Source: Desulfobacteraceae bacterium
Lineage (GTDB): Bacteria; Desulfobacterota; Desulfobacteria; Desulfobacterales; JAABSP01
Assembly (NCBI GenBank): GCA_011390345.1
Contig: JAABSP010000008.1
Coordinates: 21,277-85,276 of the forward strand
Direction of reading: 5' to 3'
Length of the DNA stretch: 64,000 nucleotides
Of this stretch, positions 1,926-61,813 are shown piece by piece. Position 1 is the stretch's first letter; every line of letters starts with the position of its first letter. Below the pieces are notes generated by a model. The model saw only the letters and a program-made list of their open reading frames with translations. It did not search any database and had not been told where the DNA came from. Position numbers and translations under genes: made by a program.

Positions 1926-4900
1926 TTACGCCGATTTCCGGTTGAGATCGGAGAGGATGATTTCGGAGACCTTCTCAGCGGACTGGCCGAAGAGTTCGTC
2001 TACGGGAACCATCTCCAGATATTGATCCTCCCAGGGAATGCTCGATTCGAGTACCAGATCCTTGATGTGCTGGTATTTACCGCCCAGTGCCTTGATCCTG
2101 GTGGAGAGGGGAACCTCCTCCTTGAACTCGATGTGGAGCAGCATCAGATGCTCGATGGTGTTGGGAGTCTCCGACGCCTCAGAGAGGATCGGGATATAGA
2201 CGATGCTGCGCTGATCCTTTCGGCCTTTGCCGATGTAGACATTTTCCTGCCGGACGATGATCAGCTTCGTTCCCTGAAGCTTGTGATCCTTCTCCACCCG
2301 GGAGGCCATGCCGGCTGAAGATCCCTCTTTTGTAAGCACCTCCACTGCGGTCTTTTCCGTCGGTTCTCCCAGAAGATCGAGGCCCCTCACCTGATAGAGG
2401 GTGAGCCCCTTGACCGTCTCGATGATCCCCTGGAGGTTTTTGACGACGATCAGATTGCTCGGAGTGAGCTGAGAGATGGAAAATCCCTTCTCCTCCAGCA
2501 GATTGAAGAGAACGCCCTCGAACTTCTCGCTGATCCGGCTCGTGCCTACGGTGACGGTCTTGGCCTGGTGCTTGATCGCATCCACGGGCCGGGCCATCGC
2601 GTTGACCCCTGTGCTGAGGCAGGCAAAGAGGGTGTTGATCATGTTCTGTGCGGTCCCCTTCATCCCGAAATCGAGTTCGAAATCGGTCACCGGAAGTCTT
2701 CCCGCGAGATATTTGAGCAGCAGGGTCAGGTCCGAGAAGATATCGAGCGCATCCGGGAGCTGGTGATCTGTCCTCTTCTTTCGGAAGACGGCATAAAATC
2801 GGGCCATCTTCTCCCGGAAGGGCTTCTCCAGTACCACTTCATAGATCCCCATTCCCGATTCCTCATAGCTTTGCAGATCGGACCGGATCTCCTGGCGGAA
2901 TTCATAGAGAAACCGCGATCCGTCGTTGATGGCAAGCGCGGAGTAGTAGCCCCAGATATGGCCCGCCAGGGTGTTGACGATCGGCGCAAGGTGCTCGGGG
3001 ATTGCCGGTACATGGAAGACGGCCGCGGCATGGGAGTCGAAGCGATCCTCGCCCTCATCCGCGATCACGATGGGGACGGCCTTGTGCGCCTTGAAGATGG
3101 CCGTGTCCTTGACGATGTCTCCGATCACCGTGGGACGGGTTCCGGCCGCGCAGACGATGATCAGCGGTTCCGAGGAGAGGTCGATGTGCTTCTTGTCCTC
3201 CACATAGTCCGAAGAGATAGTCTTGTAGCAGAGTTCGCTCAACTTGATCCGGATCTCATCGGCCGAGGCCTTGTTGGGACCGCTGCCGACCGCGGCCCAG
3301 TAGGTGCGGGTGATGGCGTGCTGCTTTGCCGCTTTCTCGATCTGCGGAGCCAGGGTCAGTACTTTGCGCATCTGTGCGGGAAGTGCCAGGAGCTGCTTGA
3401 CCTCGCGTGCCACAGCTTCATCGTTTCTGGTTCCCTTCAGGCTCGTGAGAAATAGCCCAAGCAGGGCCCCGGCCACGATCTGGGAGTAGAAGGCCTTGGT
3501 GGAGGCTACCGACATCTCGATGTCCCGGCCGCTGCTGGTGTAGAGAACTCCGTCAGCTTTGAAGGTCAAATCCGAATCCCGGCGGTTGACGATGCCGATG
3601 GTCTTCGCGCCCCGCTCTTTGGCCATATCAACGGCCCGGTTGGTGTCGGTGGTGGTTCCGGACTGGCTGATGGCCACCACCAGAGCATCCTCCATGGAAC
3701 ACATGTCCCTGTCGGCCCCCAGCTTGAAGCCGCTCAGCTCCGACGCCTTCATGGCCGAGATGACCAGAGACGGATCGTTCAAGTAATGGGTGAAGATGTC
3801 CGCACAGGCCTGGGATGCGACTCCCGCGGTCCCCTGTCCCACAAAGAAGATCCGCCGGATTTTTCCAGACGAAATGGCCTCTTTGAGATGGGCTGACACC
3901 ACACTCTCGTTCAGACTGACAACGTACCGATGGGTTCCGTCTTCAGCTTTGGCCACCTTCCATCGGTTCAAAAGCGTCTTCTCCACCGAGTCCGGGGCTT
4001 CGGAGATCTCCTTTAGAAAGTAGTGCTCGAACTCCTGGCGGTCGATATCCCGGGAGGTTAGTTCTGTGGCGCGGATGTTCTCTTCGGTCAATTCCAGGGG
4101 CGTGCCGTCGTAATACATGGCCGTGATGCCTGCAAGTCCGCCTTCGGAATTCTGGTCCAGGATGAAAAGCTGACCCTGGGTCTTCCCGCTTTTGCCCTGA
4201 ACCACCTTCTCTCCGTCCAGCTTTAAGAAGCGGTTCGTCTCCTCGATGAAGCCGTAGACTTCGGATGCGGGGAGATAATGGTCATCGGCAAGGCCGATGA
4301 AAAGGGCCTGACCGCTGCCCCGCTGGGCCAGAAAGAGTCTGCCCGGGGCCAGGTCGGTCTGCATCGCGATGGCATGGGAGCCGTCGAAATCGTTCAAGGC
4401 CATCCGGAATGCCTCTTCCACTGCAAAGCCCTGGCGCAGGTAGGTCTCCACCTGCAGGGGGATGATCTTGGTGTCGGTGGTAATCTCTTCGTGGATTCGA
4501 TCCCCATCCCGCTCGAACTCCCGCTTCAGATCCCCATAGTTGTCGATATCTCCGTTCAGGCAGACATGGATGATCGCATCCTCGCTTCGGGCCGTTTCCG
4601 CATTCGGGCCCCGGATCACCCGGCTGTCCACCGGGTGGCAGTTGGGCTCGCTGATGGCCCCAACCGATGCCCAGCGGGTGTGGGAGAGAACCGTATAATT
4701 GCGGTAGGGGAGACCGGCGATTGTGTGCAGCAGGTCATCGCTTCGGATCTGCTCCCGGAGAAACGCGATGTTGTCGCCCAGACTGCCCACCTCGGCCGAG
4801 ACCTTGTAGGTGAGGCTGATCACGATCCGGTTTTTTCCTTCAATGGTGATCTCATGCAGAGAGATCCCACGGTTGAGGAGCATCGGATTGCCGAGCCGGG

Positions 4901-5570
4901 CATCGAATGCCTCCTGGGCCATGTTCGCTTTGACCGAGGCTTTAAACCCCTCGAGATCCGATTCCTCGAGAACGAAGAGCAGCGAGATCCCGGCCGAATC
5001 CCTGCCCCGGACCTCCAGCCGGTCGATGCTGTTGAAGACCGCGTTGATCTTCTGGAAGACCCGGAGGCTTTCCAGGGTCACATCCTTCTCCCCCTCCTCC
5101 GGAAGATCCATCAGATCCCGCACCCGTCGGATGTTCTCCGAGATCTCCCTGTCCAGACACCAGGCAATGTCCTTGACCGTGTCGATGGCCCGGGTCATGC
5201 TCTCCACCTGGGAGGGTTCAAGATGTCCCACATGGTCCGCAAAGAGCTTCTCTTCGTTTTTCAGAAAATCAAAAAGCCCATCGCGCATTTCCCGGATCTT
5301 CCCATGAATCTCCGGATGGTTAAATATGGTGTAAAAGGGAACTTCCTTCCTTAAATTCCGTGCCATCTCCCAGAGGGAGGAGACGGTCTTCTCGCCCCCG
5401 AGATAGCCGTCATGGGCATTGCCATCCTTTCGGTCCGAGCGGGTGTAGCCGGTCGTGAGGATTTTTCGGGCCAGATCGTTCATTCGAGAGAGATCGGCCC
5501 GAAAGGCATCTTCGGAAAGGAAATTGCTTTTATGGATATTGACGGGAGTGATCCCTGTCAGTCCGCACAT
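1926..5570 (-). CDS. Giant GlmS-like protein: class-II (Ntn) glutamine amidotransferase + 2 SIS domains + extra C-terminal region; function unassigned
   Basis: 1214-aa ORF starting MCG (Cys2 is the Ntn nucleophile). RLEVRGRDSAGISL and SHTRWASVGAISEPNCHPV match GlmS GATase blocks. SIS blocks are FFVGQGTAGVASQ...AISQSGTTTDT and AAVGSGPNKASADEIRIKLSE. An internal RPVDAIKHQAKTVTVG resembles the GlmS C-terminal tail. The protein is about twice the canonical GlmS length. Confidence 0.75.
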   Translation of the reverse strand: MCGLTGITPVNIHKSNFLSEDAFRADLSRMNDLARKILTTGYTRSDRKDGNAHDGYLGGEKTVSSLWEMARNLRKEVPFYTIFNHPEIHGKIREMRDGLFDFLKNEEKLFADHVGHLEPSQVESMTRAIDTVKDIAWCLDREISENIRRVRDLMDLPEEGEKDVTLESLRVFQKINAVFNSIDRLEVRGRDSAGISLLFVLEESDLEGFKASVKANMAQEAFDARLGNPMLLNRGISLHEITIEGKNRIVISLTYKVSAEVGSLGDNIAFLREQIRSDDLLHTIAGLPYRNYTVLSHTRWASVGAISEPNCHPVDSRVIRGPNAETARSEDAIIHVCLNGDIDNYGDLKREFERDGDRIHEEITTDTKIIPLQVETYLRQGFAVEEAFRMALNDFDGSHAIAMQTDLAPGRLFLAQRGSGQALFIGLADDHYLPASEVYGFIEETNRFLKLDGEKVVQGKSGKTQGQLFILDQNSEGGLAGITAMYYDGTPLELTEENIRATELTSRDIDRQEFEHYFLKEISEAPDSVEKTLLNRWKVAKAEDGTHRYVVSLNESVVSAHLKEAISSGKIRRIFFVGQGTAGVASQACADIFTHYLNDPSLVISAMKASELSGFKLGADRDMCSMEDALVVAISQSGTTTDTNRAVDMAKERGAKTIGIVNRRDSDLTFKADGVLYTSSGRDIEMSVASTKAFYSQIVAGALLGLFLTSLKGTRNDEAVAREVKQLLALPAQMRKVLTLAPQIEKAAKQHAITRTYWAAVGSGPNKASADEIRIKLSELCYKTISSDYVEDKKHIDLSSEPLIIVCAAGTRPTVIGDIVKDTAIFKAHKAVPIVIADEGEDRFDSHAAAVFHVPAIPEHLAPIVNTLAGHIWGYYSALAINDGSRFLYEFRQEIRSDLQSYEESGMGIYEVVLEKPFREKMARFYAVFRKKRTDHQLPDALDIFSDLTLLLKYLAGRLPVTDFELDFGMKGTAQNMINTLFACLSTGVNAMARPVDAIKHQAKTVTVGTSRISEKFEGVLFNLLEEKGFSISQLTPSNLIVVKNLQGIIETVKGLTLYQVRGLDLLGEPTEKTAVEVLTKEGSSAGMASRVEKDHKLQGTKLIIVRQENVYIGKGRKDQRSIVYIPILSEASETPNTIEHLMLLHIEFKEEVPLSTRIKALGGKYQHIKDLVLESSIPWEDQYLEMVPVDELFGQSAEKVSEIILSDLNRKSA

Positions 5571-17090: not shown

Positions 17091-19391
17091 ATGGGATATT
17101 CAATACTGGATGCCATCGGCAACACGCCCATGGTCGAGATCGTCAAGCTCAATCCGAACCCCCGGGTCCGGATACTGGCCAAGCTCGAATACTTCAACCC
17201 GGGCGGCTCCATCAAGGATCGGGCGGCTCTCTCCATGATCGAGGCCGGAGAGCGTTCCGGTGAGCTGACCCCCGACAGAACCGTGATCGAGGCCACCTCC
17301 GGCAACACCGGCATCGGCCTTGCCCTGGTCTGCTCCGTCAAGGGGTACCGGCTGCTGCTGGCCATGTCCGAGGCCGCGAGCATCGAGCGGCAGAAAATTT
17401 TAAAGGCGCGGGGGGCAGAGATCCTGCTGACGCCGGGCCATCTGGGAACCGACGGCGCGATCGAGGAGGTCTACCGGCTTGCGCGGGAAAACCCGGATGC
17501 CTATTTCATGGCCGATCAGTATAATAACCCGGCCAACTGGGAGGCCCACTACAGCGGGACCGCACAGGAGATCTGGGAGCAGACAAACGGGGAGGTCACT
17601 GTCGTTGTGGCAACGATGGGAACCACCGGAACCCTCATGGGGATCTCCCGCCGGATGAAGGAGTACAGCCCGAAGATCGAAATCATCGGTGTGGAGCCGT
17701 ATCTGGGTCATAAGATCCAGGGCCTGAAGAACATGAAGGAGGCCTACTGCCCCGAACTCTATGAAAAGGCGCGCCTCGACGAGAAGGTCAACATCGATGA
17801 TGAAGAGGCCTTTGAGATGACCCGCCGGTTGGCCCGGGAGGAGGGCCTTTTTGTGGGGATGAGCAGCGGCGCGGCCCTGGTCATCGCGGCCCAAAAGGCC
17901 GCATCAATGAAGGAGGGGACCATTGTCGTCATCTTCCCGGACAGCGGGGAGCGGTATCTGAGTACCTCTCTTTTTGCCGTAAAGGAGAAGGTCGATCTCA
18001 ATCTCTTCAACACCATGAGCCGCGACAAGGAGACATTTCAGCCCCTGATTCCGGGAAAAGTATCTCTTTATTCCTGCGGCCCTACGGCCGATGCCCGGCT
18101 TCATGCCGGAGAGTACCGGCGCTTCATCTTCTCGGATCTGCTCTGCCGGTATCTCGGTTTCCGGGGGTATGAGGTCAAACAGATCATGAACATCACCGAT
18201 CTGGACGACCGAACCATCAACGGCTCCGAAGAGAAGGGCGTGGAACTGACCGAGTTTACCGAGAAAAATATTGCGGATTTTCAAAGGGATCTCAAAACCC
18301 TCGGCATTCAGCCGGCCGCGGCCTATCCCAGGACCAGCGAGCATGTGGACGACATGGTCGCGGTCGCGGAGAAGCTCGTCAAAAAGGGTGTGGCCTACGA
18401 GAAGCTGCGCTCCTTATATTTCGACATCTCCCGGTTTTCCGACTACGGAAAGCTCTCCGGCGTGGATCTGAACAAGATCCGGCTCGGCGCGACCGTTGAT
18501 CTGGACGAATACGAGAAGGACAACCCCCGAGATTTCACCCTCCTGAAGCGCTCCCGCCTCTCGGAATTGAAGCGGGGCATCTACGTCAAGACCGAGTGGG
18601 GAAATGTCCGCCCCTCATGGCATCTCCAGTGCGCGGCCATCTCCATGAAGTATCTGGGGGAGATCTATGACATCCACACCAGCGGAAGAGAACTCGTATT
18701 TCCCCACCATGAAAACGAGATCGCGATCGCGTCGGCCCTAACCGGAAAGCCTCTGGCCCGATACTGGCTCCATTGCGACCGGGTGCTGGTGGAGGGGAAG
18801 AAGCTGGATGACCACGGCTGGTCCGTGACCATCGATGATCTGACGGAGATGGGTTACACCGGCAAGGAGATCCGCTTCTGGCTCCTTTCGGCCCATTACC
18901 GGAAGCCGGTGATCTTCTCCACGGACCGGCTCGATGCGGCCAGCCGCTCTCTGCAACGCCTGAACGCATGCATCCAGGCGCTGATCAATGTGAAAAACGG
19001 AAAGACCAGAGTATCCCCCGATCCCTTTCCGGAGCTGGATCAACTCCTGTATGACATCAAAAACGGCTTCATCAGCGCGATGGACGATGATTTGAACATC
19101 TCGGCCGCGCTGGCCGCGCTCTTCGGCAATGTCAAACGGATCAACAAGCTGGCCCTGGAAGGCCGTTTCAGCCAGAAGGATGCGGAGAAGATCCTGGAGT
19201 CCTTTTCCGGCATCGATTCTGTGCTGAACGTGCTCGACTTTACCGATTCTCTGGAAGATCCGAAGATCCGGGAGCTGATCCGGCAGCGGGAGGCGGCCAG
19301 AGCCGAAAATAACTGGGCCATCGCGGACCGGATTCGGGAGGAACTGCTCGAAAAGGGCGTCACGGTCCGGGATCGGAAGACGAACGGATAA
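17091..19391 (+). CDS. Fusion protein: cysteine synthase (CysK/CysM, PLP fold type II) + cysteinyl-tRNA-synthetase-like module with degenerate HIGH/KMSKS
   Basis: The N-terminal ~300 aa carry NPGGSIKDR (PLP Lys), TSGNTG and GTTGT. The C-terminal ~460 aa are collinear with CysRS (LYSCGPT, NITDLDD, WHLQCAAIS, DIHTSGRELVFPHHENEIA, AMDDDLN). The HIGH position reads LHAGEY and the KMSKS position reads GKKLD. Confidence 0.85.
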   Translation: MGYSILDAIGNTPMVEIVKLNPNPRVRILAKLEYFNPGGSIKDRAALSMIEAGERSGELTPDRTVIEATSGNTGIGLALVCSVKGYRLLLAMSEAASIERQKILKARGAEILLTPGHLGTDGAIEEVYRLARENPDAYFMADQYNNPANWEAHYSGTAQEIWEQTNGEVTVVVATMGTTGTLMGISRRMKEYSPKIEIIGVEPYLGHKIQGLKNMKEAYCPELYEKARLDEKVNIDDEEAFEMTRRLAREEGLFVGMSSGAALVIAAQKAASMKEGTIVVIFPDSGERYLSTSLFAVKEKVDLNLFNTMSRDKETFQPLIPGKVSLYSCGPTADARLHAGEYRRFIFSDLLCRYLGFRGYEVKQIMNITDLDDRTINGSEEKGVELTEFTEKNIADFQRDLKTLGIQPAAAYPRTSEHVDDMVAVAEKLVKKGVAYEKLRSLYFDISRFSDYGKLSGVDLNKIRLGATVDLDEYEKDNPRDFTLLKRSRLSELKRGIYVKTEWGNVRPSWHLQCAAISMKYLGEIYDIHTSGRELVFPHHENEIAIASALTGKPLARYWLHCDRVLVEGKKLDDHGWSVTIDDLTEMGYTGKEIRFWLLSAHYRKPVIFSTDRLDAASRSLQRLNACIQALINVKNGKTRVSPDPFPELDQLLYDIKNGFISAMDDDLNISAALAALFGNVKRINKLALEGRFSQKDAEKILESFSGIDSVLNVLDFTDSLEDPKIRELIRQREAARAENNWAIADRIREELLEKGVTVRDRKTNG

Positions 19392-20886: not shown

Positions 20887-21423
20887 ATGCCAATCCCCCG
20901 TTTATATCAGATAACCTTCTATACCCGATTTGGCCCCATGGGCTTTGTCCATGAAGCCGATCCTTTTCTCCTTCGACGGGTCTATCTGCCCCGGCTCGAC
21001 CTTACGGCCCTTGCCGAAGCCATGACCGCAGAATGGGGTCTTCTTCGGGAAGAGTTCCATACGGATGATTCGGCGCAGCGGATTCGGTCGTCGATTCTGG
21101 GGTATTTTGCAGGCAAGGCGTTGATCCTGCCCTGGGATCGGATGGCAAGAGAGGGGCTAACCGCGCTACAGTGGAGGACGCTGGAAATTGTGGCCGACAT
21201 CCCTGCCGGTGAGGTGCGCTCCTACGGGGAGATCGCCCGACAAATCGGACGGCCCAAAGCCGCCCGGTTCGTGGGAAGCGTCATGGCCAGCAATCCATTC
21301 CCCCTCCTCATTCCCTGCCATCGGGTGGTCCGGCAGGATCGAACCGTGGGCGGCTTTGGCGGCGGCCCCGAACTCAAAAAGCGCCTGCTCGACTTTGAGG
21401 GCGCAGACTACTCTTCAAAATAG
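20887..21423 (+). CDS. ogt: Methylated-DNA--protein-cysteine methyltransferase
   Basis: Active-site block LLIPCHRVV and the helix-turn-helix block SYGEIARQIGRPKAARFVG. The 3' end overlaps the convergent AMMECR1 gene by 16 nt. Confidence 0.85.
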   Translation: MPIPRLYQITFYTRFGPMGFVHEADPFLLRRVYLPRLDLTALAEAMTAEWGLLREEFHTDDSAQRIRSSILGYFAGKALILPWDRMAREGLTALQWRTLEIVADIPAGEVRSYGEIARQIGRPKAARFVGSVMASNPFPLLIPCHRVVRQDRTVGGFGGGPELKKRLLDFEGADYSSK

Positions 21424-25184: not shown

Positions 25185-25412
25185 ACTCTCTTGACCGGTT
25201 GTGGTGTCGCCTTTTTGGGCGGTGAAAAGGGAATGCGGTGAGAATCCGCAGCGTTGGACCGGCGCTGTAAGCAGGGACCGGCCCCGCATATTGCCACTGC
25301 TTTTTTAAAGCATCGGATATGGATTTTCAAAATCCCCGATGTTTTATAGTGCGGGAAGGCGCGGGCCACGGAAAGATCTGCAAGCCAGAAGACCTGCCAT
25401 AACCGCAGGAAG
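25185..25412 (+). promoter_or_regulatory. Cobalamin (B12) riboswitch
   Basis: GGTGAAAAGGGAATGCGGTGAGAATCCGCAGCG...GGCGCTGTAAGC...GCCACTG...GGGAAGGC...AGCCAGAAGACCTGCC (B12 box at 25383-25398). These match the conserved cobalamin-riboswitch core blocks in the correct order. Confidence 0.85.
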
Positions 25413-25430
25413 ATGCGTCCGACAGATTCC

Positions 25431-29439: not shown

Positions 29440-29814
29440 ATGAAATGCCCCAAGTGCCAAACGGATATGGAGAAGATCGAATACGAGGAGGTGACTGTTG
29501 ACCGCTGCCTTGGCTGCAAAGGGCTCTGGTTCGACATGCTCGAGCATGAAAAGCTCAAAGGGATTCCCGGTTCTGAGATCATCGATTCCGGTGATCCGGA
29601 GACCGGCAGAAAATACAATGAGATCGATGAGGTCAACTGCCCGGTCTGCCGGGCCCGGATGATCCGGATGGTGGACAAGGATCAGCCCCATATCTGGTAT
29701 GAATCCTGCGGGGTCTGCTACGGCGTCTTCTTCGATGCCGGGGAGTTCACCGATTACAAGGAGAAGACGATCCTCGATTATTTCAAAGGGTTTGTGGCAA
29801 AAGAACGGAGGTAG
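29440..29814 (+). CDS. Tandem TFIIB-type zinc-finger (zf-TFIIB/PF13453-like) protein
   Basis: First copy: MKCPKCQTDMEKIEYEEVTVDRCLGCKGLWFDMLEHEKL. Second copy: CPVCRARMIRM...CGVCYGVFFDAGEF. Confidence 0.65.
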   Translation: MKCPKCQTDMEKIEYEEVTVDRCLGCKGLWFDMLEHEKLKGIPGSEIIDSGDPETGRKYNEIDEVNCPVCRARMIRMVDKDQPHIWYESCGVCYGVFFDAGEFTDYKEKTILDYFKGFVAKERR

Positions 29815-29881
29815 GCTTTCTTTGAATCGATCCGTTGGCCATGAAAACCGGGAACATGACCATGGCTTGTCCCGGAAGTCG

Positions 29882-30790
29882 ATGATTGTGGTTCTCAATC
29901 TCGGGGCCGGCTACTTCTCCCGGTCCGGGGGGCAGGAGCGAAAGGCGCATCTGTCTCAGCTTTTCAACGAGTGCTGCCCCAATGCCCGGCTGGTATGGGC
30001 TCCTCCTGATAACATGGGAAAGGAGATATTGAAAGCCGTAGAGAGTTCTTCGGATATCCTGATCGTGGGCGGAGGCGACGGAACCATCAACCGGACCGTC
30101 AACGCGCTCGGGGGAACCGAAAAGGCCATCGGCGTGCTTCCCCTGGGTACCTTCAACCTGATCGCAAGGGATCTTCACATACCGCTGGATGTGGAGACCG
30201 CGGTCAAAACCCTGACTGCCGGCCGGATCGAAGAGGTCGATGTGGGGGAGATCAACGGCTATATCTTTGTCCACAATATCTCATTGGGCATCCATCGGAA
30301 GGCCGTGGAGATGCGGGAGGTGTATCGGAAAAAGATGAATATCGGGAAGATTGCCGCGGTCGCGTTTGCCGCGTTCAAGGCTGCACTCCAGCCGCCCCTG
30401 ATGTCGGGCTATCTGGAATCTGTGGATGATGCCGAATTCATCCGTGCCCCCTTTGTATTTGTGGGAGTCAACCGGTTCGAGACCGATATCTTCACCCTGA
30501 TGCAGCGTCTCTCCCTGACGGACGGGAATCTGAGCGTTCTCTATTCTCCCCAGGTCAAGCCCCCGGCCCGGCTCTTCATGTTCAAATTGGGACTCTATGC
30601 GATCTTCAAGCGCCGGTTCAAGGAGGTTCCGGAACTCAAGTCGATTCTGACCCAGGAGTTTACGATCCACAGCCGGAAGAAGAGGCTCAAGGCCCTGGCC
30701 GACGGCGAGTTCGTCCGCTTCCGAACGCCATTGAGATTCAGTATCCGGCCCCGATACCTGCGGATGATGATCCCAAAGCTTGAAGAATGA
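29882..30790 (+). CDS. Diacylglycerol-kinase-catalytic-domain lipid kinase (YegS/LCB5 family)
   Basis: Contains MIVVLNLGAG and ILIVGGGDGTINRTVNAL (GGDGT motif). The track ORF extends upstream without support. The stop overlaps the next start (ATGA). Confidence 0.75.
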   Translation: MIVVLNLGAGYFSRSGGQERKAHLSQLFNECCPNARLVWAPPDNMGKEILKAVESSSDILIVGGGDGTINRTVNALGGTEKAIGVLPLGTFNLIARDLHIPLDVETAVKTLTAGRIEEVDVGEINGYIFVHNISLGIHRKAVEMREVYRKKMNIGKIAAVAFAAFKAALQPPLMSGYLESVDDAEFIRAPFVFVGVNRFETDIFTLMQRLSLTDGNLSVLYSPQVKPPARLFMFKLGLYAIFKRRFKEVPELKSILTQEFTIHSRKKRLKALADGEFVRFRTPLRFSIRPRYLRMMIPKLEE

Positions 30791-31701
30791 AGCGGATCGC
30801 ACATATCTCCGACATCCATTTCGGCAGGGTGGTCCCGGAAATCGCAGACGCTCTGGTGGCGGATTTGAAGGCGCTGAATCCCGATCTGGTGGCGGTGAGC
30901 GGGGATCTGACCCAGCGGGCCCGGCCGTGGCAGTATCGAGCGGCAAGGGATTTTTTAAGACGGATTCCCTTTCCCAAGATCGTGGTCCCGGGAAACCATG
31001 ATGTTCCCCTGTATGATGTGGGCCGGCGGTTTTTGCGGCCATTGAAGCGGTTTGAGCGGTATATCACTAACGATTTCAGCCCGTTTTATGCCGATGACGA
31101 GATCGCTGTACTCGGGGTTAATACCGCGAGATCCTTCACCTTCACGAACGGCAGCATCTCTGCAAAGCAGGTGGAGATCATCCGGGAGCATTTCTGTGGG
31201 ATTCCGCAGGAGACCCGAAAAATTCTGGTCACCCACCATCCCTTTCTGCCGCCACCGGACGACCTGAAAAGGCGGCTGATGGGCAGCGCTGGAAAGGTTC
31301 TTACGACCCTGGAGAGCTGCAACCTCGATCTGCTCCTGGCCGGCCACTTTCATATGAGCTACGCTGGCGGCTCCCATTCCGTCTACCGGACTCTGGCCCG
31401 CTCCGTGCTGGTGATCCAGGCGGGGACGGCCACCTCCAGCCGGGTGCGGAAGGAGAAGAACGCCTACAATACCATCTCGGTGGAGGGAGATCAGGTCGAA
31501 CTGGAGGTCCGGATGTGGGAGGGCCGCGGTTTCGTCCATTATCGGAAACAGCGGTTTCACCATGATGATGAAAGGGGATGGGATCTGGGACATGCTCCTC
31601 ATTCGACCGCAGATCCTTCCCAGCATTTGTCGAAAAGCGGAGACGGAATCGAAGAGAACCTTGAACATATCAGCCTTCAGGCAAGGAGGGAATTCAGATG
31701 A
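30787..31701 (+). CDS. Calcineurin-like metallophosphoesterase
   Basis: Contains HISDIHFG, GDLTQR, GNHD and VTHHP motifs. The stop overlaps the next start (ATGA). Confidence 0.85.
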   Translation: MKRIAHISDIHFGRVVPEIADALVADLKALNPDLVAVSGDLTQRARPWQYRAARDFLRRIPFPKIVVPGNHDVPLYDVGRRFLRPLKRFERYITNDFSPFYADDEIAVLGVNTARSFTFTNGSISAKQVEIIREHFCGIPQETRKILVTHHPFLPPPDDLKRRLMGSAGKVLTTLESCNLDLLLAGHFHMSYAGGSHSVYRTLARSVLVIQAGTATSSRVRKEKNAYNTISVEGDQVELEVRMWEGRGFVHYRKQRFHHDDERGWDLGHAPHSTADPSQHLSKSGDGIEENLEHISLQARREFR

Positions 31702-33053
31702 AAAAAGAGCGACTGGTAGTAATCGGCGGAGACGCGGCCGGGATGAGCGCGGCCTCCCAGGCCCGTCGGCGGAAGCCGGAGATGGAGATCATAGCCTTTG
31801 AAAAGAGTCCGCACACATCCTATTCGGCCTGAGGGGTTCCCTATTACATCGGCAGTCTTGTCGATGACGAAAACGATCTGGTGGCAAGAACCCCGGAAGC
31901 CTTCAAGAAGAATCAGGACATCGACGCATATGTCCGCCATGAGGTGACGGAGATCGATCTTTCTGACAGAAGAGTCCGGGTCGAAAATCTCGATACCGGA
32001 AAGGAGTGGTGGGAGCCCTTTGATCAACTGATGGTCGCGACAGGCGCGGTTGCACTCCGCCCCCCCATCGAAAACATCGATGCGGAGGGGATCTACGGGA
32101 TCACGACCCTGAAGAGCGGGATGATCTTCAAGGGGGTAGTCGATCGGGAGAAGCCGAGACGGGGGGTGGTGATCGGCGGCGGATACATCGGCCTGGAGAT
32201 GGCTGAGGCCATGCTGATGCGGGGGATGGAGGTCTCGCTGGTGGAGATGGCTCCCGAGGTGATGGGAACCCTGGACCCGGATATCGGCGCGATCGTCTCC
32301 CAGTCCCTCATCGATCACAAGGTTGACCTCTACCGGGAGGAGGCGCTCACCGGCATCGAAGTCAAGAACGGAAAAGTCACGGCAGTGATCACGGAAAACC
32401 GTGTGCTGCCGGCAGACATCGTGGTCCTCGGGACCGGGGTGAGGCCCAACTCGGATCTGGCAAAGGCGGCCGGGATTCCCGTAGGCGTCCGGGACGGCAT
32501 CATTGTAAACGAGCGGCAGCAGACCGAGATCGAAGGCGTCTGGTCAGCAGGAGACTGCGTCCAGACCCATCACCTGATCAGCAAAAAGCCCTTCTATGTG
32601 GCCCTGGGAACCGTTGCCAATAAACAGGGGATGGTGGCAGGCATCAACATCGGCGGCGACGATGCGGTCTTCCCGGGTGCGATCGGAACGGCCATCACAA
32701 AGTTCATGGAGACCGAGATCTCCCGCACGGGATTGAGCCAAAAGGAGATCGAGGATCTGGGATGGGAGTTCATCACCGGGAAGGTCAAGACCAGGAACAA
32801 GCCGGGCTACTATCCCGGGGCGGCCGAGATCACGGTTAAGATCCATGCGGAAAAGGGGAGCGGTAAATTGCTCGGCGGCCAGATCGTGGGCAAACAGGAG
32901 TCCGGAAAGCGGATCGACACCATTGCCACCTGCCTTCATGCCGGATTTACGGTAGAACAGATGGTCTTTCTCGATCTGAGCTATGCCCCGCCCTTCTCTC
33001 CGGTCTGGGACCCGGTGGCGGTCGCGGCCCGCAAGGCTGTCAAAGAGATCTGA
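31698..33053 (+). CDS. CoA-disulfide reductase / NADH oxidase-family flavoprotein with in-frame TGA (predicted selenocysteine) at the active-site Cys position
   Basis: The ATG at 31698 (AAGGAGG upstream) opens the frame of track ORF 31881..33053. It reads MKKERLVVIGGDAAGMSAAS...SPHTSYSA-TGA(31830-31832)-GVPYYIG, collinear with the SFANCALPY active-site block of CoADR/Nox. The rest shows the typical two-Rossmann-fold plus dimerisation-domain layout. Confidence 0.85.
31847..31866 (+). promoter_or_regulatory. Candidate bacterial SECIS hairpin
   Basis: CAUCGGC-AGUCUU-GUCGAUG forms a 7-bp stem (one G-U pair). It starts 15 nt after the UGA and has a GU in the apical loop. Confidence 0.5.
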
Positions 33054-33068
33054 CGACCAGTTGGGATT

Positions 33069-33839
33069 ATGCTTTCTCTTATTACTCTGCTGACAGTAAT
33101 GGTTCTTTCGATTCTCGTCACCCGGATTGCAACGGTCGCCCTCACACATACGGGCCTTTCGAAGCAGGCCGCGAGATTCCAGGCCCGCTCCGCATTCACC
33201 GGGGTCGGCTTCACCACCAACGAATCGGAGAAGATGGTCAACCACCCAGTTCGGCGTAAGGTTCTGCTGCTGCTGATGCTTTTGGGCAATGCCGGGATCG
33301 TGACGGTGATGTCAACCCTGATCCTCTCCTTCATGAATCTGGAGACGACCCAGTCGGTCGCGGTCCGGGTGGCCATTATCCTTTTCGGACTGCTCCTCCT
33401 CTGGGCATTGGCCGCAAGCCAATGGGTGGATCGCCACCTCTCCAACCTGATCACCTGGGCACTGAAGCACTATACGAACATGGATGTCCGTGATTACGCG
33501 GCCATGCTCCACCTGGCCGGAGAGTATGCGGTGAGCGAGATGCAGGTGGAGCCGGAGGACTGGCTTTCGGGAAAGAGCCTCGAGGAGCTGAAGCTGAAGA
33601 AAGAGGGGGTGATGGTGCTGGGCATCACGCGGAAGAACGGAACCTATATCGGCGGGCCCATGGGAAATACGAAGCTGCTTCCCTATGATACGATAATGCT
33701 CTACGGCCGGACCTCTGCGGTGCAGAAGCTCGACGAGCGGAAAAGAGGCCGCACCGGGGATGAGGAGCACGTCCGGGAGGTGGTGCGCCAGATGGGGGTG
33801 GTGCAGGATCAGGAGGCCGATGATTCTGCGGAAAAATGA
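33069..33839 (+). CDS. Membrane protein with TrkA-C (RCK_C) domain and a single KtrB/TrkH-like pore-loop motif
   Basis: TM1, then ARSAFTGVGFTT, then TM2, then further TM helices. The C-terminal block VEPEDWLSGKSLEELKLKKEGVMVLGITR...LLPYDTIMLYG matches RCK_C. Confidence 0.65.
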   Translation: MLSLITLLTVMVLSILVTRIATVALTHTGLSKQAARFQARSAFTGVGFTTNESEKMVNHPVRRKVLLLLMLLGNAGIVTVMSTLILSFMNLETTQSVAVRVAIILFGLLLLWALAASQWVDRHLSNLITWALKHYTNMDVRDYAAMLHLAGEYAVSEMQVEPEDWLSGKSLEELKLKKEGVMVLGITRKNGTYIGGPMGNTKLLPYDTIMLYGRTSAVQKLDERKRGRTGDEEHVREVVRQMGVVQDQEADDSAEK

Positions 33840-58490: not shown

Positions 58491-60896
58491 CTATTCAAGC
58501 TGTTCGGCCCGCTGTTTGTAAAGAAAATGATAGATGAATTCGCAGTACCGGTCCATCTTCTTCTTTCCCTCTGCCGAGACGCTAAACCGCCAGAATCCAT
58601 ACAGTTTCGCCAGATTGATGAGCCGCTCGCTGTAGAGGCTCCAGGTGAAGCTCTCCCGGACCCGCTCGATGCCCTTTTCTGAAATCTCCTTCCAGAGATC
58701 GGGATTTTTCTCCTCACTGTCGGCAAATCCTTCAATGGCCGCTGCGATGAGCTGGGGTTCACTGGTATTGATCAGAAAGCCGTCCTGACCATCCCGGATG
58801 ATCTCCCTTGGCCCGCCGAAATGGGTGGCAAAGGTGACAAGACCCGAGGCCATCGCCTCAAGAATGGTGAGGCCGAAGGCTTCGAAAAGAGCCGGCTGGA
58901 CAAAAAAGCCTTTGCGGTCCGCAATTACACGATAGGCCTCTCCTGTCTCCAGCTTGGGAATGCTCGGCAGCCACCGGAGGCTTCCCTGAAGTTGATACTG
59001 GTCGATCAGAGCATAGGCCTGGCGGATCTGCTCCCGCTCCTCCTCGTCCTGGGATTCATCCAGATGGATGGTTCCGGCCGCAAAGACGAGGTTGTACTTC
59101 TCCCGCAGTTTCCGGCTCATGCCAAAGGCTTCGATGAGCCCGGTGATGTTTTTGATTTTGTCGAAGCGGGCCATGGTGAAGATCGGCGGCTTCTCAGGCG
59201 CATCCAGTTGTCCGTAGATCTCATCAGAACTATCCGTAAAGAGGCGGCCCTCCCATTTCCGGGTCTGGTGCTGAATCCGCTGATCCGCAGCCGTATAGGG
59301 AAAGTAGATCTGCTCGTCAACACCAGGGGGAATGACATTGAACTTGGGCGCGAAGAGATTGACGCCGCTCACCACCTGATAGAGCTGGGGCATGGTGAAG
59401 AACTGGTAGGATTCGTACTGCCCCATCTCGTATTCGGTTCCCACAATCTCCTGCGTGGTGCTGGTGATGATGAAGTCGGACTTGTTCATGGCCAGAATAT
59501 CTGCGGTGAACTGGATGGAGAAGTTGTACTCCCTCTCCATATCCTGCCAGTAGAGGTCCGAAAAGAGGTATTTCGATTTCTCCAGAGCGTGGGCGATGGT
59601 GCATTGGATCACATTCATCTTGTCGGAAAGGAGAGTGGCCACCAGATTGCCGTCCGAATAGTTGCCGATGATCAGATCGGGCCTTCCGTGAAAGGTGTGC
59701 ATCAGTTCGGTCTCGGCATCGCTGGCAAACCGCTCCAGGTATGGCCAGATCTTGAAGCGGGAGATCCAGTGGCGGATCACGTTCTGGTTTTGATCCCTAA
59801 ACGGGATTCTGACAATCCATGCATTCTCCGTGCCGTGGATCTTCTCCTTTCGCTGGTCGCAGGAGGTATTCCCGGCATCGGGAATGAGCCGGGTCAGCAC
59901 GATGATCTGGGGTTTGATGTCGAGGCCCGTTAGGGCGATCTCCTTTTCCAGATACTTCTCCAGTGCCCGGACCTGATCCAGGATATATATCACCTGCCCC
60001 CCGGTATCCGGCTTTCCCAGTACGTTCTCCTGACCGAACCAGCCGTGGGGAGAGAGGATCGCGATCTTGGAGATCAGCGGCAGCGTCACCCGGGAGAGAA
60101 AGCTTTCCAGCATCACATCCGTGGGTTCGTCGATGAGTTCCTTGAGCATCTCCATGCTCTCGACGATTCGGCCCACACTGTTTCCCCAGCCCGGCTCGAA
60201 CCCGGCTTTTTTCATGTCCGAAGCCACCTCATTGTAAGGTGTTTGGGCCGGCAGGGTTTCGAGGCGGGCGATCATCTTCTCGATCTCGTTCAGGCAGTGC
60301 CTGAAATTTTCGATGATATCCCCGTTGATAAGCAATTGTGTCCCGTTGTACTTGTGGAGCTTGATGAAGTCGAAGCTTTTGCGCTTCCACTCCCGGGGAT
60401 GCTGGAAGATGTTGCTGCAGAGGTAGCGGCTTAAAAAACGGATGCCGTTGCCCAGCTTCTTAGGGTCCCGGATGGAGGGGGAGAAATCGTAAAAGGGCTT
60501 GAAGTCGAGGTGCAGATGCCGCATCCGATCCTCTGCAGACCCTCCGCCGAAATAGCGGTCCTTGAACTCGAGGTACTGATCTGTTGATATCTCCTCCATA
60601 TATTCCGCGTCATTTCGAAGCATCAGGAGCCGATAGCGCGCCAGCGCGTGTCGATAGGAGATGACGGTGTAGGATTCCAGGATAAAAAGATCCTGTACCT
60701 TGTTCAAAAAGCGAACGGTCTCGGATGTTGTTTTATAGGATTCTTCCTTGCCCTGGGAGTCGCAGAAGCGTTCAAAGGCAAGTATGATATCGTTTCGCAG
60801 CAGTAGTTTTTTCTCCTGCTGGGTGAGCATGGAGATGAACTCTTTGAAATCCCTTTTCTCATCATTGGGGATGATGCTCTCTAGAAGACCTTGCAT
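58491..60896 (-). CDS. Sucrose synthase (GT4 family, UDP/ADP-glucose:fructose glucosyltransferase)
   Basis: GNYSDGNLVATLLSDKMNVIQCTIAHALEKSKY...FTADILAMNKSDFIITSTTQEI...GQYES...PKFNVIPPGVD is nearly motif-for-motif identical to plant and cyanobacterial SuSy. Start at ATG 60896. Confidence 0.92.
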   Translation of the reverse strand: MQGLLESIIPNDEKRDFKEFISMLTQQEKKLLLRNDIILAFERFCDSQGKEESYKTTSETVRFLNKVQDLFILESYTVISYRHALARYRLLMLRNDAEYMEEISTDQYLEFKDRYFGGGSAEDRMRHLHLDFKPFYDFSPSIRDPKKLGNGIRFLSRYLCSNIFQHPREWKRKSFDFIKLHKYNGTQLLINGDIIENFRHCLNEIEKMIARLETLPAQTPYNEVASDMKKAGFEPGWGNSVGRIVESMEMLKELIDEPTDVMLESFLSRVTLPLISKIAILSPHGWFGQENVLGKPDTGGQVIYILDQVRALEKYLEKEIALTGLDIKPQIIVLTRLIPDAGNTSCDQRKEKIHGTENAWIVRIPFRDQNQNVIRHWISRFKIWPYLERFASDAETELMHTFHGRPDLIIGNYSDGNLVATLLSDKMNVIQCTIAHALEKSKYLFSDLYWQDMEREYNFSIQFTADILAMNKSDFIITSTTQEIVGTEYEMGQYESYQFFTMPQLYQVVSGVNLFAPKFNVIPPGVDEQIYFPYTAADQRIQHQTRKWEGRLFTDSSDEIYGQLDAPEKPPIFTMARFDKIKNITGLIEAFGMSRKLREKYNLVFAAGTIHLDESQDEEEREQIRQAYALIDQYQLQGSLRWLPSIPKLETGEAYRVIADRKGFFVQPALFEAFGLTILEAMASGLVTFATHFGGPREIIRDGQDGFLINTSEPQLIAAAIEGFADSEEKNPDLWKEISEKGIERVRESFTWSLYSERLINLAKLYGFWRFSVSAEGKKKMDRYCEFIYHFLYKQRAEQLE

Positions 60897-60925
60897 AAAA
60901 AAACCCTTTTTTGCCGTTCCTTTGA

Positions 60926-61813
60926 TTATGAAAAGATGGAGGAAAAGTCCCGATAAAAATCCTGTGATTCCGGAATTGCCCCCTGTATCCTGCAGATTTT
61001 GCTGGCGAACCGGGTGGCGGTCTCCAGCGTCTTTTTCGGGGGCCACCCCTTTAGAATTCCGATGGCCAGAACCGAGGTAAATGCGTCGCCCGCGCCCACC
61101 GTATCCACAATCTTCAGATCCTTTTCCGGCTCGGCCTCGACCCTCTCGCTTTCCGTATAGAGGCGGCTGCCGGCCCCGCCAAGGGTGAGACAGATCATTT
61201 CGATGGGATAATTTCCAAAAAGATGTTCGATAAACGCGTCATCCCCGCGGCCAAAGGAGAGCAGCCCACGAATGGCCGGCAGCTCCTCATCGTTGAGCTT
61301 GAGGATATGGCACTGGTCCAGGGAGGCTTCGACGATCTTGCGGTTATAGCAATCGGGCCGCAGGTTGACATCGTAGAGGGTCCGGGTCTTCTCCCCCCGA
61401 TCTGCCAGCATCTTCTGGACGTTTTGGAATCCGTGATCGGTTCGCTGGATCAATGTGCCGTAATATATGAGATCAGCCCGGGAAAGCATCGGGGAGAGAT
61501 CCGGGGAGTAAGTGATGTGATCATAGGCCACATCCCGGACGATGTCGAAGGATGCGCTGCCGTCGGGCTTTACGGTCACGATCACTTCGCCGGTTTTGTG
61601 ATCCTCATCCATCTGGATGTACTCTGCGTCGAATCCATTCGCCTTTAAAAATGAGAGGATCTCCTCTCCGTTGCTCTCCTTGCCCACGCGGCTGATAAAT
61701 CGGGTTTCAAACCCAAGCGCATGGGTATGGAAGGCAAAATTGAAGGGGGCCCCGCCCATCCGTTTTCCATTCGGAAACCGATCAAAGAGGATTTCTCCGA
61801 TGGATACGATCAT
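60926..61813 (-). CDS. Fructokinase (PfkB family)
   Basis: MIVSIGEILFDRFPNGKRMGGAPFNFAFH... and DTVGAGDAFTS. It lies directly upstream of the sucrose synthase gene. Confidence 0.88.
   Translation of the reverse strand: MIVSIGEILFDRFPNGKRMGGAPFNFAFHTHALGFETRFISRVGKESNGEEILSFLKANGFDAEYIQMDEDHKTGEVIVTVKPDGSASFDIVRDVAYDHITYSPDLSPMLSRADLIYYGTLIQRTDHGFQNVQKMLADRGEKTRTLYDVNLRPDCYNRKIVEASLDQCHILKLNDEELPAIRGLLSFGRGDDAFIEHLFGNYPIEMICLTLGGAGSRLYTESERVEAEPEKDLKIVDTVGAGDAFTSVLAIGILKGWPPKKTLETATRFASKICRIQGAIPESQDFYRDFSSIFS

Follow-up and report, generated by a model that had tools for sequence, protein, structure and literature searches.

When a TGA codon stands in frame at the position of the catalytic cysteine (Cys) of a redox enzyme, is it a stop, or is it read as selenocysteine (Sec)? 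We examined this question for the TGA at positions 31830-31832 of a 64,000-nucleotide stretch of contig JAABSP010000008.1 from a Desulfobacteraceae bacterium (assembly GCA_011390345.1), referred to here, at its full length, as the window. Mechanical open reading frame (ORF) finding cuts the gene in two at this codon, into a 44-residue ORF (31698-31832) and a 390-residue ORF with a GTG start (31881-33053). An original prediction, made from the sequence alone, had instead read 31698-33053 as one selenoprotein gene. Our analysis leads to the same reading: the gene very probably encodes a flavoprotein resembling coenzyme A (CoA)-disulfide reductases (CoADR) and NADH oxidases, with the redox-active Cys predicted to be replaced by Sec through recoding of the UGA. 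Directly supported are the collinear frame across the UGA, the match between the UGA and Cys, the same arrangement in 85 other loci, and selection on a downstream hairpin in the TGA forms only.

One reading frame across the UGA

The complete gene (31698..33053, forward strand) has 451 codons, of which codon 45 is the predicted Sec codon; this model draws on the translation, on matches to TIGR03385 and Pfam, and on 18 full-length orthologues with Cys. Its ATG at 31698 lies 8 nt downstream of a Shine-Dalgarno sequence, AAGGAGG, read from the sequence at 31683..31689 on the same strand. The ATG also overlaps the stop codon of the upstream metallophosphoesterase gene (TGA, 31699-31701) in an ATGA at 31698..31701 (forward strand), an arrangement taken from the ORF coordinates and the sequence, which implies that the two genes would be translationally coupled. 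Translation of the frame gives a single internal TGA, at 31830-31832, and the terminator is the TGA at 33051-33053. Around the internal codon the translation reads ...EKSPHTSYSA-*-GVPYYIGSLVDD.... The original prediction had described this start codon, ribosome-binding site, overlap and internal TGA, and all were found at the positions given here.

Public gene calls for an identical contig (L001, from Logan run DRR846332) show the same split into 44 and 390 residues as the ORF track of the window, and the N-terminus is thus missed by both, as had been predicted. The 390-residue ORF from GTG 31881 is a gene-calling artefact, routine for callers at UGA. For this reason the annotation gap, which the prediction had singled out as noteworthy, is nothing out of the ordinary.

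The protein family and its catalytic residue

All family searches were run with the 451-residue protein in which Cys had been entered at the TGA position. Residues 5-444 matched positions 1-439 of the 439 positions of TIGR03385, the CoADR profile, with 447.6 bits and E = 4e-134. Because the profile is covered from end to end, the 44 codons before the TGA represent the true N-terminus. Pfam recognised the Pyr_redox_2, Pyr_redox and Pyr_redox_dim domains. From the Pfam matches and the alignments, the protein has Rossmann folds for flavin adenine dinucleotide (FAD) and NAD(P)H and a dimerisation domain, and residue 45 is its only Cys or Sec aligned with an active site. Thousands of homologues were found in the database search, and the best 120 are nearly all about 451 residues long and 57-63% identical to the query.

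We aligned the window protein over its full length with 18 Cys orthologues of 450-459 residues (58-63% identity), a comparison that the original prediction had proposed. Column 45 holds Cys in all 18, always surrounded by P-H-T-S-x-x-A-C-G-x-P-Y. Among the 44 residues that precede the TGA, 24 are invariant, including the FAD-binding IGGDAAGMSAA, which argues that the segment omitted by the ORF track is a true and indispensable N-terminus. This segment contains the FAD-binding dinucleotide motif IGGDAAG (residues 9-15; 31722..31742, forward strand), which falls inside the 44 missed codons and is invariant from I9 to G15 in the 19 sequences. The predicted FAD fold stands in that an N-terminal dinucleotide motif is present, but not in the literal GxGxxG that had been ascribed to it; GGDAAG has the form G-x-D-x-x-G, and Asp12 is invariant in the subfamily. 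A second dinucleotide motif, GGGYIG (residues 160-165; 32175..32192, forward strand), marks the NAD(P)H site within the Pfam Pyr_redox match at residues 156-233. In the orthologue alignment G160, G161, G162, Y163 and G165 of this motif are invariant and I164 is nearly so.

Among solved structures, the nearest are 6ruz, an NADH oxidase (2.5e-106), and the Pyrococcus CoADRs 5l1n, 4fx9 and 3kd9 (about 1e-95), and the predicted Sec (U45) lies opposite their active-site Cys. The in-frame UGA (31830..31832, forward strand) is placed at the single redox-active Cys position by alignments, structures and the 85 loci described below; the claim that it replaces this residue agrees with both the 18 orthologues and the structures 6ruz and 5l1n. 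As predicted from its sequence, the product is a 451-residue flavoprotein of the single-cysteine CoA-disulfide-reductase/NADH-oxidase/persulfide-reductase group.

TGA at the catalytic codon in other genomes

We searched the GTDB representatives, one genome for each species, with a degenerate DNA pattern for H-T-S-[YF]-[SA]-A-TGA-G-x-P-Y-[YH], which carries about 45 bits and for which about 0.03 chance matches were expected. The pattern was matched in 85 loci. In all 83 of the loci that are not cut by the end of the locus, at least 43 in-frame sense codons of the conserved N-terminus precede the TGA, with an initiator Met at about -44, and the ORF past the TGA runs for about 406 codons wherever the length of the locus permits. 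The segment 31698-31880 is conserved as coding sequence both in these loci and in the Cys orthologues.

The main hosts are Desulfobacterota (Geobacteraceae, Desulfuromonadaceae, Desulfobulbaceae, Desulfobacteraceae, Desulfacinum and Desulfosoma). The others are a few Chloroflexota (Anaerolineae, Thermomicrobiaceae) and one metagenome-assembled genome (MAG) each of Rokubacteria, Nitrospinota and Acidobacteriota. Cultured carriers include Geobacter hydrogenophilus DSM 13691, Geomobilimonas luticola JCM 17780, Desulfacinum hydrothermale, D. infernum and Thermalbibacter longus.

The identical TGA is found in three independent assemblies: the window, the contig from DRR846332, and the Desulfobacteraceae MAG S20.Bin068 (JAABSZ01, locus L037). 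The last of these is about 96-97% identical to the window across 8 kb, and its gene differs from that of the window by 44 synonymous and 11 non-synonymous codons of 451. In five comparisons with more distant TGA orthologues, synonymous differences likewise exceed non-synonymous ones in the first 44 codons. A 253-nt stretch over the start, the UGA and the hairpin shows no difference between the window and L037 and was weighed as a sign of special constraint; we rejected this, mismatch-free runs of 230-334 nt being common in this pair.

Apart from L037, the Sec forms are about 61-66% identical to the window protein and the best Cys forms about 61%. Sec and Cys forms are interleaved, with identities of up to 87%, which fits the exchange of Sec and Cys described for bacterial selenoproteins.

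Two individual cases were noted during the survey. One Desulfobulbus MAG carries two separate TGA copies of the gene, on contigs 2 and 3 of NZ_CAXXTL01 (L048 and L065). A locus labelled Dongiaceae, from an alphaproteobacterial bin (L025, DATNCC010000134.1), is identical in its first 54 nt from the TGA to a Geobacteraceae MAG (L058), and the upstream peptides of the two show one difference in the 50 residues printed. L025 is probably a mis-binned contig.

A hairpin selected at synonymous sites

Just downstream of the UGA lies a hairpin (31847..31866, forward strand) that we interpret as a bacterial selenocysteine insertion sequence (SECIS), on the basis of folds, consensus criteria, covariation and a synonymous-codon null. 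Its 8-bp stem (31847-31854/31859-31866) closes on the apical loop GUCU (31855-31858). The hairpin begins 14 nt downstream of the UGA, within the codons for Y-I-G-S-L-V-D-D, and the loop G at 31855 is 22 nt after it. The predicted hairpin at these positions is therefore present, but with other details: it had been described with 7 bp and an AGUCUU loop, and in the RNAfold structure the A and U of that loop pair to close it.

The bacterial SECIS (bSECIS) consensus given in a 2026 review (PMC13188914) consists of an apical loop of 3-9 nt with a stem of 4-16 bp, a G within the first two loop positions, a spacing from the UGA of 16-37 nt, and a free energy of -7.5 kcal/mol or lower. Counting loop and stem size together as one of four criteria, the window hairpin passes all of them (4-nt loop GUCU, 8-bp stem, 22-nt spacing, -10.1 kcal/mol). 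When 30-nt segments were folded, 61 of the 76 distinct TGA sequences passed all four as well, and the remainder missed the energy threshold alone.

The pairing is also conserved among these 76 sequences. A seven-pair helix is paired in 91% of cells, and pairing falls to 14-65% when the register is slid. Compensatory changes occur at two pairs. One is U-A in 31 sequences and C-G in 27; the other is G-C in 66, A-U in eight and G-U in two, with none unpaired, and pairs the first base of an Ile/Val codon with the wobble position of an Asp codon. None of 500 shuffles reached the observed covariation score. C occupies the wobble positions at alignment columns 21 and 24 in 76 of 76 sequences, and conservation of a loop G at column 26 is 90% or higher.

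Since the hairpin sits in conserved codons, we used a codon-level null, in which the synonymous codons of the eight hairpin codons were resampled according to each gene's own codon usage. The hairpin of the window, at -10.1 kcal/mol, was compared with a null mean of -4.0 kcal/mol (p = 0.0005). Across 63 distinct TGA genes the mean was -8.7 against a null of -3.6 kcal/mol, with a median p of 0.023 and 75% of genes at or below 0.05. For 61 metagenome Cys genes the corresponding values were -3.8 and -3.7 kcal/mol, with a median p of 0.51 and none at or below 0.05. An earlier Cys control, built from metagenome TGY matches with the same downstream peptide, had n = 8 only and was superseded by this per-gene null. 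Synonymous sites of the hairpin are thus under selection where the codon is TGA and not where it is Cys, as predicted for a SECIS element. The SECIS-like geometry that had originally been proposed is in this way supported by the consensus criteria, by compensatory changes and by synonymous selection confined to the TGA forms.

The same hairpin accompanies the TGA in Thermomicrobiaceae (L079, L061, L076 and L045, including the isolate Thermalbibacter longus CFH 74404), in Rokubacteria (L039) and in Nitrospinota (L075). These hosts fall outside the Deltaproteobacteria, the group recorded for the family in the papers cited here.

Weighing selenocysteine insertion against the alternatives

Several results weigh against Sec insertion or against the proposed family. 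The score of 447.6 bits does not reach the curated TIGR03385 equivalog cutoff of 578.8, and the 422.8 bits for NF007123 do not reach its equivalog cutoff of 458. With both scores below the CoADR equivalog cutoffs, the protein is called CoADR-like and is given no equivalog or substrate assignment. The score for NF046103, the H2O-forming NADH oxidase, was 227.7, below the cutoff of 600. No selA, selB, selD or tRNA-Sec was found within the 64-kb window when about 45 window ORFs were searched with Pfam and the window with ARAGORN, which reported no tRNA of any kind there. In 60 related loci ARAGORN likewise gave no tRNA-Sec, only tRNA-Met. Biochemical studies of Sec-containing CoADRs did not turn up in the searchable literature, and a literature search on PDB 6ruz gave nothing usable.

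Other negative results concern the hairpin. As a single sequence, the 61-nt fold is no stabler than its shuffles (z = -0.29; 68 of 200 shuffles fold as well or better). The hairpin is therefore not judged from the window alone, and its significance comes from the comparative and codon-level tests only. Neither the entire window, searched in Rfam at gathering thresholds, nor the segment 31780-31930, searched with E values of up to 10, matched a SECIS-type family; these searches returned two chance snoRNA matches only. Furthermore, the hairpin can also be formed by four of the eight closest Cys orthologues, in which GC-rich codons specify the same peptide, so that part of the pairing stems from the peptide sequence.

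Of 35 domain-supported genes in the window, 16 end in TGA, more than in any other ordinary stop, and TGA terminates both the selenoprotein gene itself and the gene upstream. The codon has thus not been reassigned, and recoding has to act locally. Local recoding without selenium would insert Cys, Trp or another residue, by near-cognate decoding or through a Cys-charged tRNA(Sec), and would give a complete protein, but no selenoprotein. The Sec pathway is generally known to be able to place Cys at UGA under selenium limitation, and the window itself, in its 64 kb, has no genes for Sec machinery. We nevertheless consider read-through of this kind improbable. A SECIS-type hairpin with a loop G, selected specifically in the TGA forms, would be purposeless for read-through that is independent of SECIS, and other genes of the window use TGA efficiently as an ordinary stop. 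Moreover, the lineages of the carriers have been recorded before as selenoprotein-rich (PMC1794560).

A genuine stop, in a decaying or split gene that makes a 44-residue peptide and a separate 390-residue protein from GTG 31881, is less probable again and seems to us very improbable. It has the mechanical ORF list and the public gene calls on its side. The 390-residue product would, however, be left without the FAD-binding fold and the redox centre, and conserved family sequence, GVPYYIGSLVDDENDL, is encoded by the 48 nt that separate the GTG from the TGA. No Shine-Dalgarno sequence precedes 31881, and the codon at this position is of a start type in only 10 of the 76 distinct TGA orthologues. 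The arrangement is also kept in 85 other loci, with the excess of synonymous over non-synonymous differences in the first 44 codons seen in the five comparisons above. Finally, the TGA is almost certainly not a TGC or TGT codon misread in sequencing or assembly: one base separates it from a Cys codon, but the same TGA is present in the three independent assemblies and 85 other loci and is accompanied by a hairpin that the Cys forms lack.

Proposed mechanism

Under Sec insertion, the UGA at 31830-31832 would be recoded during translation, with Sec incorporated instead of termination. The hairpin at 31847-31866 would, through its apical GU, recruit SelB-GTP-Sec-tRNA(Sec) to the ribosome. By comparison with the characterised Cys enzymes, the product would be a homodimeric flavoenzyme in which electrons pass from NAD(P)H to FAD and on to Sec45. 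If the partner is CoA or another small thiol or persulfide, Sec45 would alternate between a selenolate and a selenenyl-sulfide; with O2 or peroxide as oxidant, it would cycle through a selenenic acid. Candidate substrates are CoA disulfide, CoA persulfide, polysulfide, O2 and peroxide.

Gene neighbourhood

The selenoprotein gene follows two putative operon partners on the same strand. The first (29699..30790, forward strand) is a lipid-kinase-like gene with a Pfam DAGK_cat domain, for which public calls start at about 29882 and whose best NCBIfam matches, the lipid kinases MamU and PRK13057, are both below cutoff. The second (30787..31701, forward strand) encodes a calcineurin-like metallophosphoesterase (Pfam Metallophos). 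The kinase stop overlaps the phosphoesterase start in an ATGA, and the window thus has ATGA stop/start overlaps at both junctions of the three genes. Downstream lies a gene for a TrkA_C-domain protein (33069..33839, forward strand), identified by Pfam and by synteny in tblastn searches of related Desulfobacteraceae. Next to the selenoprotein gene, this TrkA_C gene is common to L014 and L040.

In tblastn searches, no loci but those of a few Desulfobacteraceae MAGs shared the order zinc-ribbon/DUF4282, kinase, phosphoesterase, Sec-flavoprotein and TrkA_C. The phosphoesterases of L030, L056, L063 and L072 are 64-71% identical to that of the window. Among the 71 Sec loci with at least 900 nt of upstream sequence, the linkage to the kinase and phosphoesterase is absent from the other approximately 65 informative ones, and it is absent from all 94 informative Cys loci. 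We therefore rejected a family-wide linkage; being confined to a few Desulfobacteraceae, the arrangement is a lineage-specific synteny and weak evidence for shared function. The coupling to these two genes that the original prediction had pointed out is real in the window, but with synteny so limited it loses its noteworthiness.

Some relatives have a further gene in this region. In L072, a gene for an outer-membrane beta-barrel protein of the ShlB/FhaC type with POTRA domains (548 residues; 2933-4579, forward strand) stands between the Metallophos and Sec-flavoprotein genes. ORFs of 546-791 residues occupy the same position in L030, L056 and L063 and, judged by ORF size, are apparently the same gene. 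Neither the window nor L037 has such a gene here; in both, the Metallophos and selenoprotein genes overlap by ATGA.

Could the Desulfobacteraceae cluster (zinc-ribbon/DUF4282, MamU/YegS-like kinase, metallophosphoesterase, Sec-flavoprotein and TrkA_C) form a functional module, in which the selenoenzyme would serve a redox step linked to lipids or phosphometabolites, rather than a generic role with CoA disulfide or in oxygen detoxification? At least four other MAG species share the gene order, at 64-71% protein identity, which speaks for it, while the lack of the linkage elsewhere and the intervening ShlB/POTRA gene in relatives count against it, and on balance we find the proposal unlikely.

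Two differences between L037 and the window were also recorded. Compared with window positions 33030-33630, L037 lacks about 600 nt, and with them the greater part of the TrkA_C gene. The Metallophos gene also differs near its 3' end, by an indel near 31587-31679, and its ORF has 323 residues in L037 and 304 in the window.

A scan of the window for further selenoprotein genes by in-frame TGA codons gave 590 candidates, about 100 of them with Cys-containing motifs, and was too noisy at 56% GC. Separately, at 20887-21423 (forward strand), the window encodes a methylated-DNA-protein-cysteine methyltransferase homologue (MGMT-like) in its ordinary Cys form, PCHRV; this family has Sec forms elsewhere.

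Other features of the window were noted along the way. An ORF of 766 residues at 17091-19391 (forward strand) joins a cysteine synthase domain (residues 5-295; 361.8 on TIGR01136 cysKM, cutoff 344.15) to an entire cysteinyl-tRNA synthetase (residues 303-763; 359.1 on TIGR00435 cysS, cutoff 340). With HAGE for its HIGH motif and KKLDDHG in the KMSKS region, the synthetase half may be non-canonical. A cobalamin riboswitch (Rfam RF00174, 104.5 bits) lies at 25185-25415 (forward strand), and the public gene calls for L001 put a forward-strand DBI_PRT (CobT-like) gene and a Peripla_BP_6 gene shortly after it. On the reverse strand, 58491-61813 encodes a sucrose synthase of plant type (GT-B_Sucrose_synth, 448.6 bits, 851 residues), with a PfkB-family sugar kinase as its neighbour, and 1926-5570 encodes a protein of 1214 residues with GATase_6 and SIS domains, GlmS-like but roughly double the normal size.

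Relation to known systems and significance

The original prediction had noted that Sec-containing NADH-oxidase-like proteins are a known class, and they are indeed a catalogued selenoprotein family (PMC1794560, PMC13188914). In the accounts that cite Kryukov and Gladyshev (2004) (PMC1794560, PMC9312934, PMC13188914), the type example of the Sec-containing FAD-dependent oxidoreductases is WP_011365774.1 of Geobacter metallireducens, with the motif UGxP. A Sec-containing "NADH oxidase" was recorded in G. metallireducens in a 2006 survey (PMC1794560) and in an Olavius symbiont (PMC1976440). The U-G-x-P motif of the family (PMC13188914) is present in the window protein as S-A-U-G-V-P-Y-Y. The window protein and the Geobacter type also agree in fold family (TIGR03385/COG0446), in Sec for the single catalytic Cys and in a Desulfobacterota host, and the Geobacter loci that we recovered (e.g., L036 and L081) have the TGA and the hairpin position of the window. 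The window protein is nonetheless a divergent member of the family (about 61-66% identical to Sec forms other than L037) and is encoded in a cluster specific to Desulfobacteraceae.

The closest solved structures are those of the Pyrococcus CoADR/NAD(P)H sulfur (polysulfide) reductases (4fx9, 5l1n, 3kd9) and the 6ruz NADH oxidase, which align with the window protein from end to end (1e-95 to 2.5e-106). They have in common with it an N-terminus of the GG-x-AAGMSAAS type and a single active-site Cys opposite U45. They differ in using Cys where the window protein would use Sec, and the window protein has Asp12 for the middle Gly of GxGxxG.

In its position in the coding region just 3' of the UGA, its small G-U loop, its spacing and its energy, the hairpin is like the bSECISearch consensus and the SECIS of Escherichia coli fdhF. 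It shares no primary-sequence resemblance with the fdhF element and has no bulged U, and its role with SelB is predicted. Ala-type variants of the family hairpin do bulge a U on the 3' arm.

The gene is a mis-called member of a Sec family known since 2004, and the understanding of selenoproteins is unchanged by it. Its useful outcome is a corrected gene model together with a cleaner description of the family SECIS. For annotation, one 451-codon coding sequence with Sec45 would replace a 44-residue ORF and a 390-residue fragment that has neither FAD site nor redox centre. For the family, the survey records at least 85 TGA loci in species representatives and extends its reach to Chloroflexota, Rokubacteria and Nitrospinota, and it places the SECIS in the codons for Y-[VI]-[GA]-x-[VLM]-V-D, where its stability is selected at synonymous sites.

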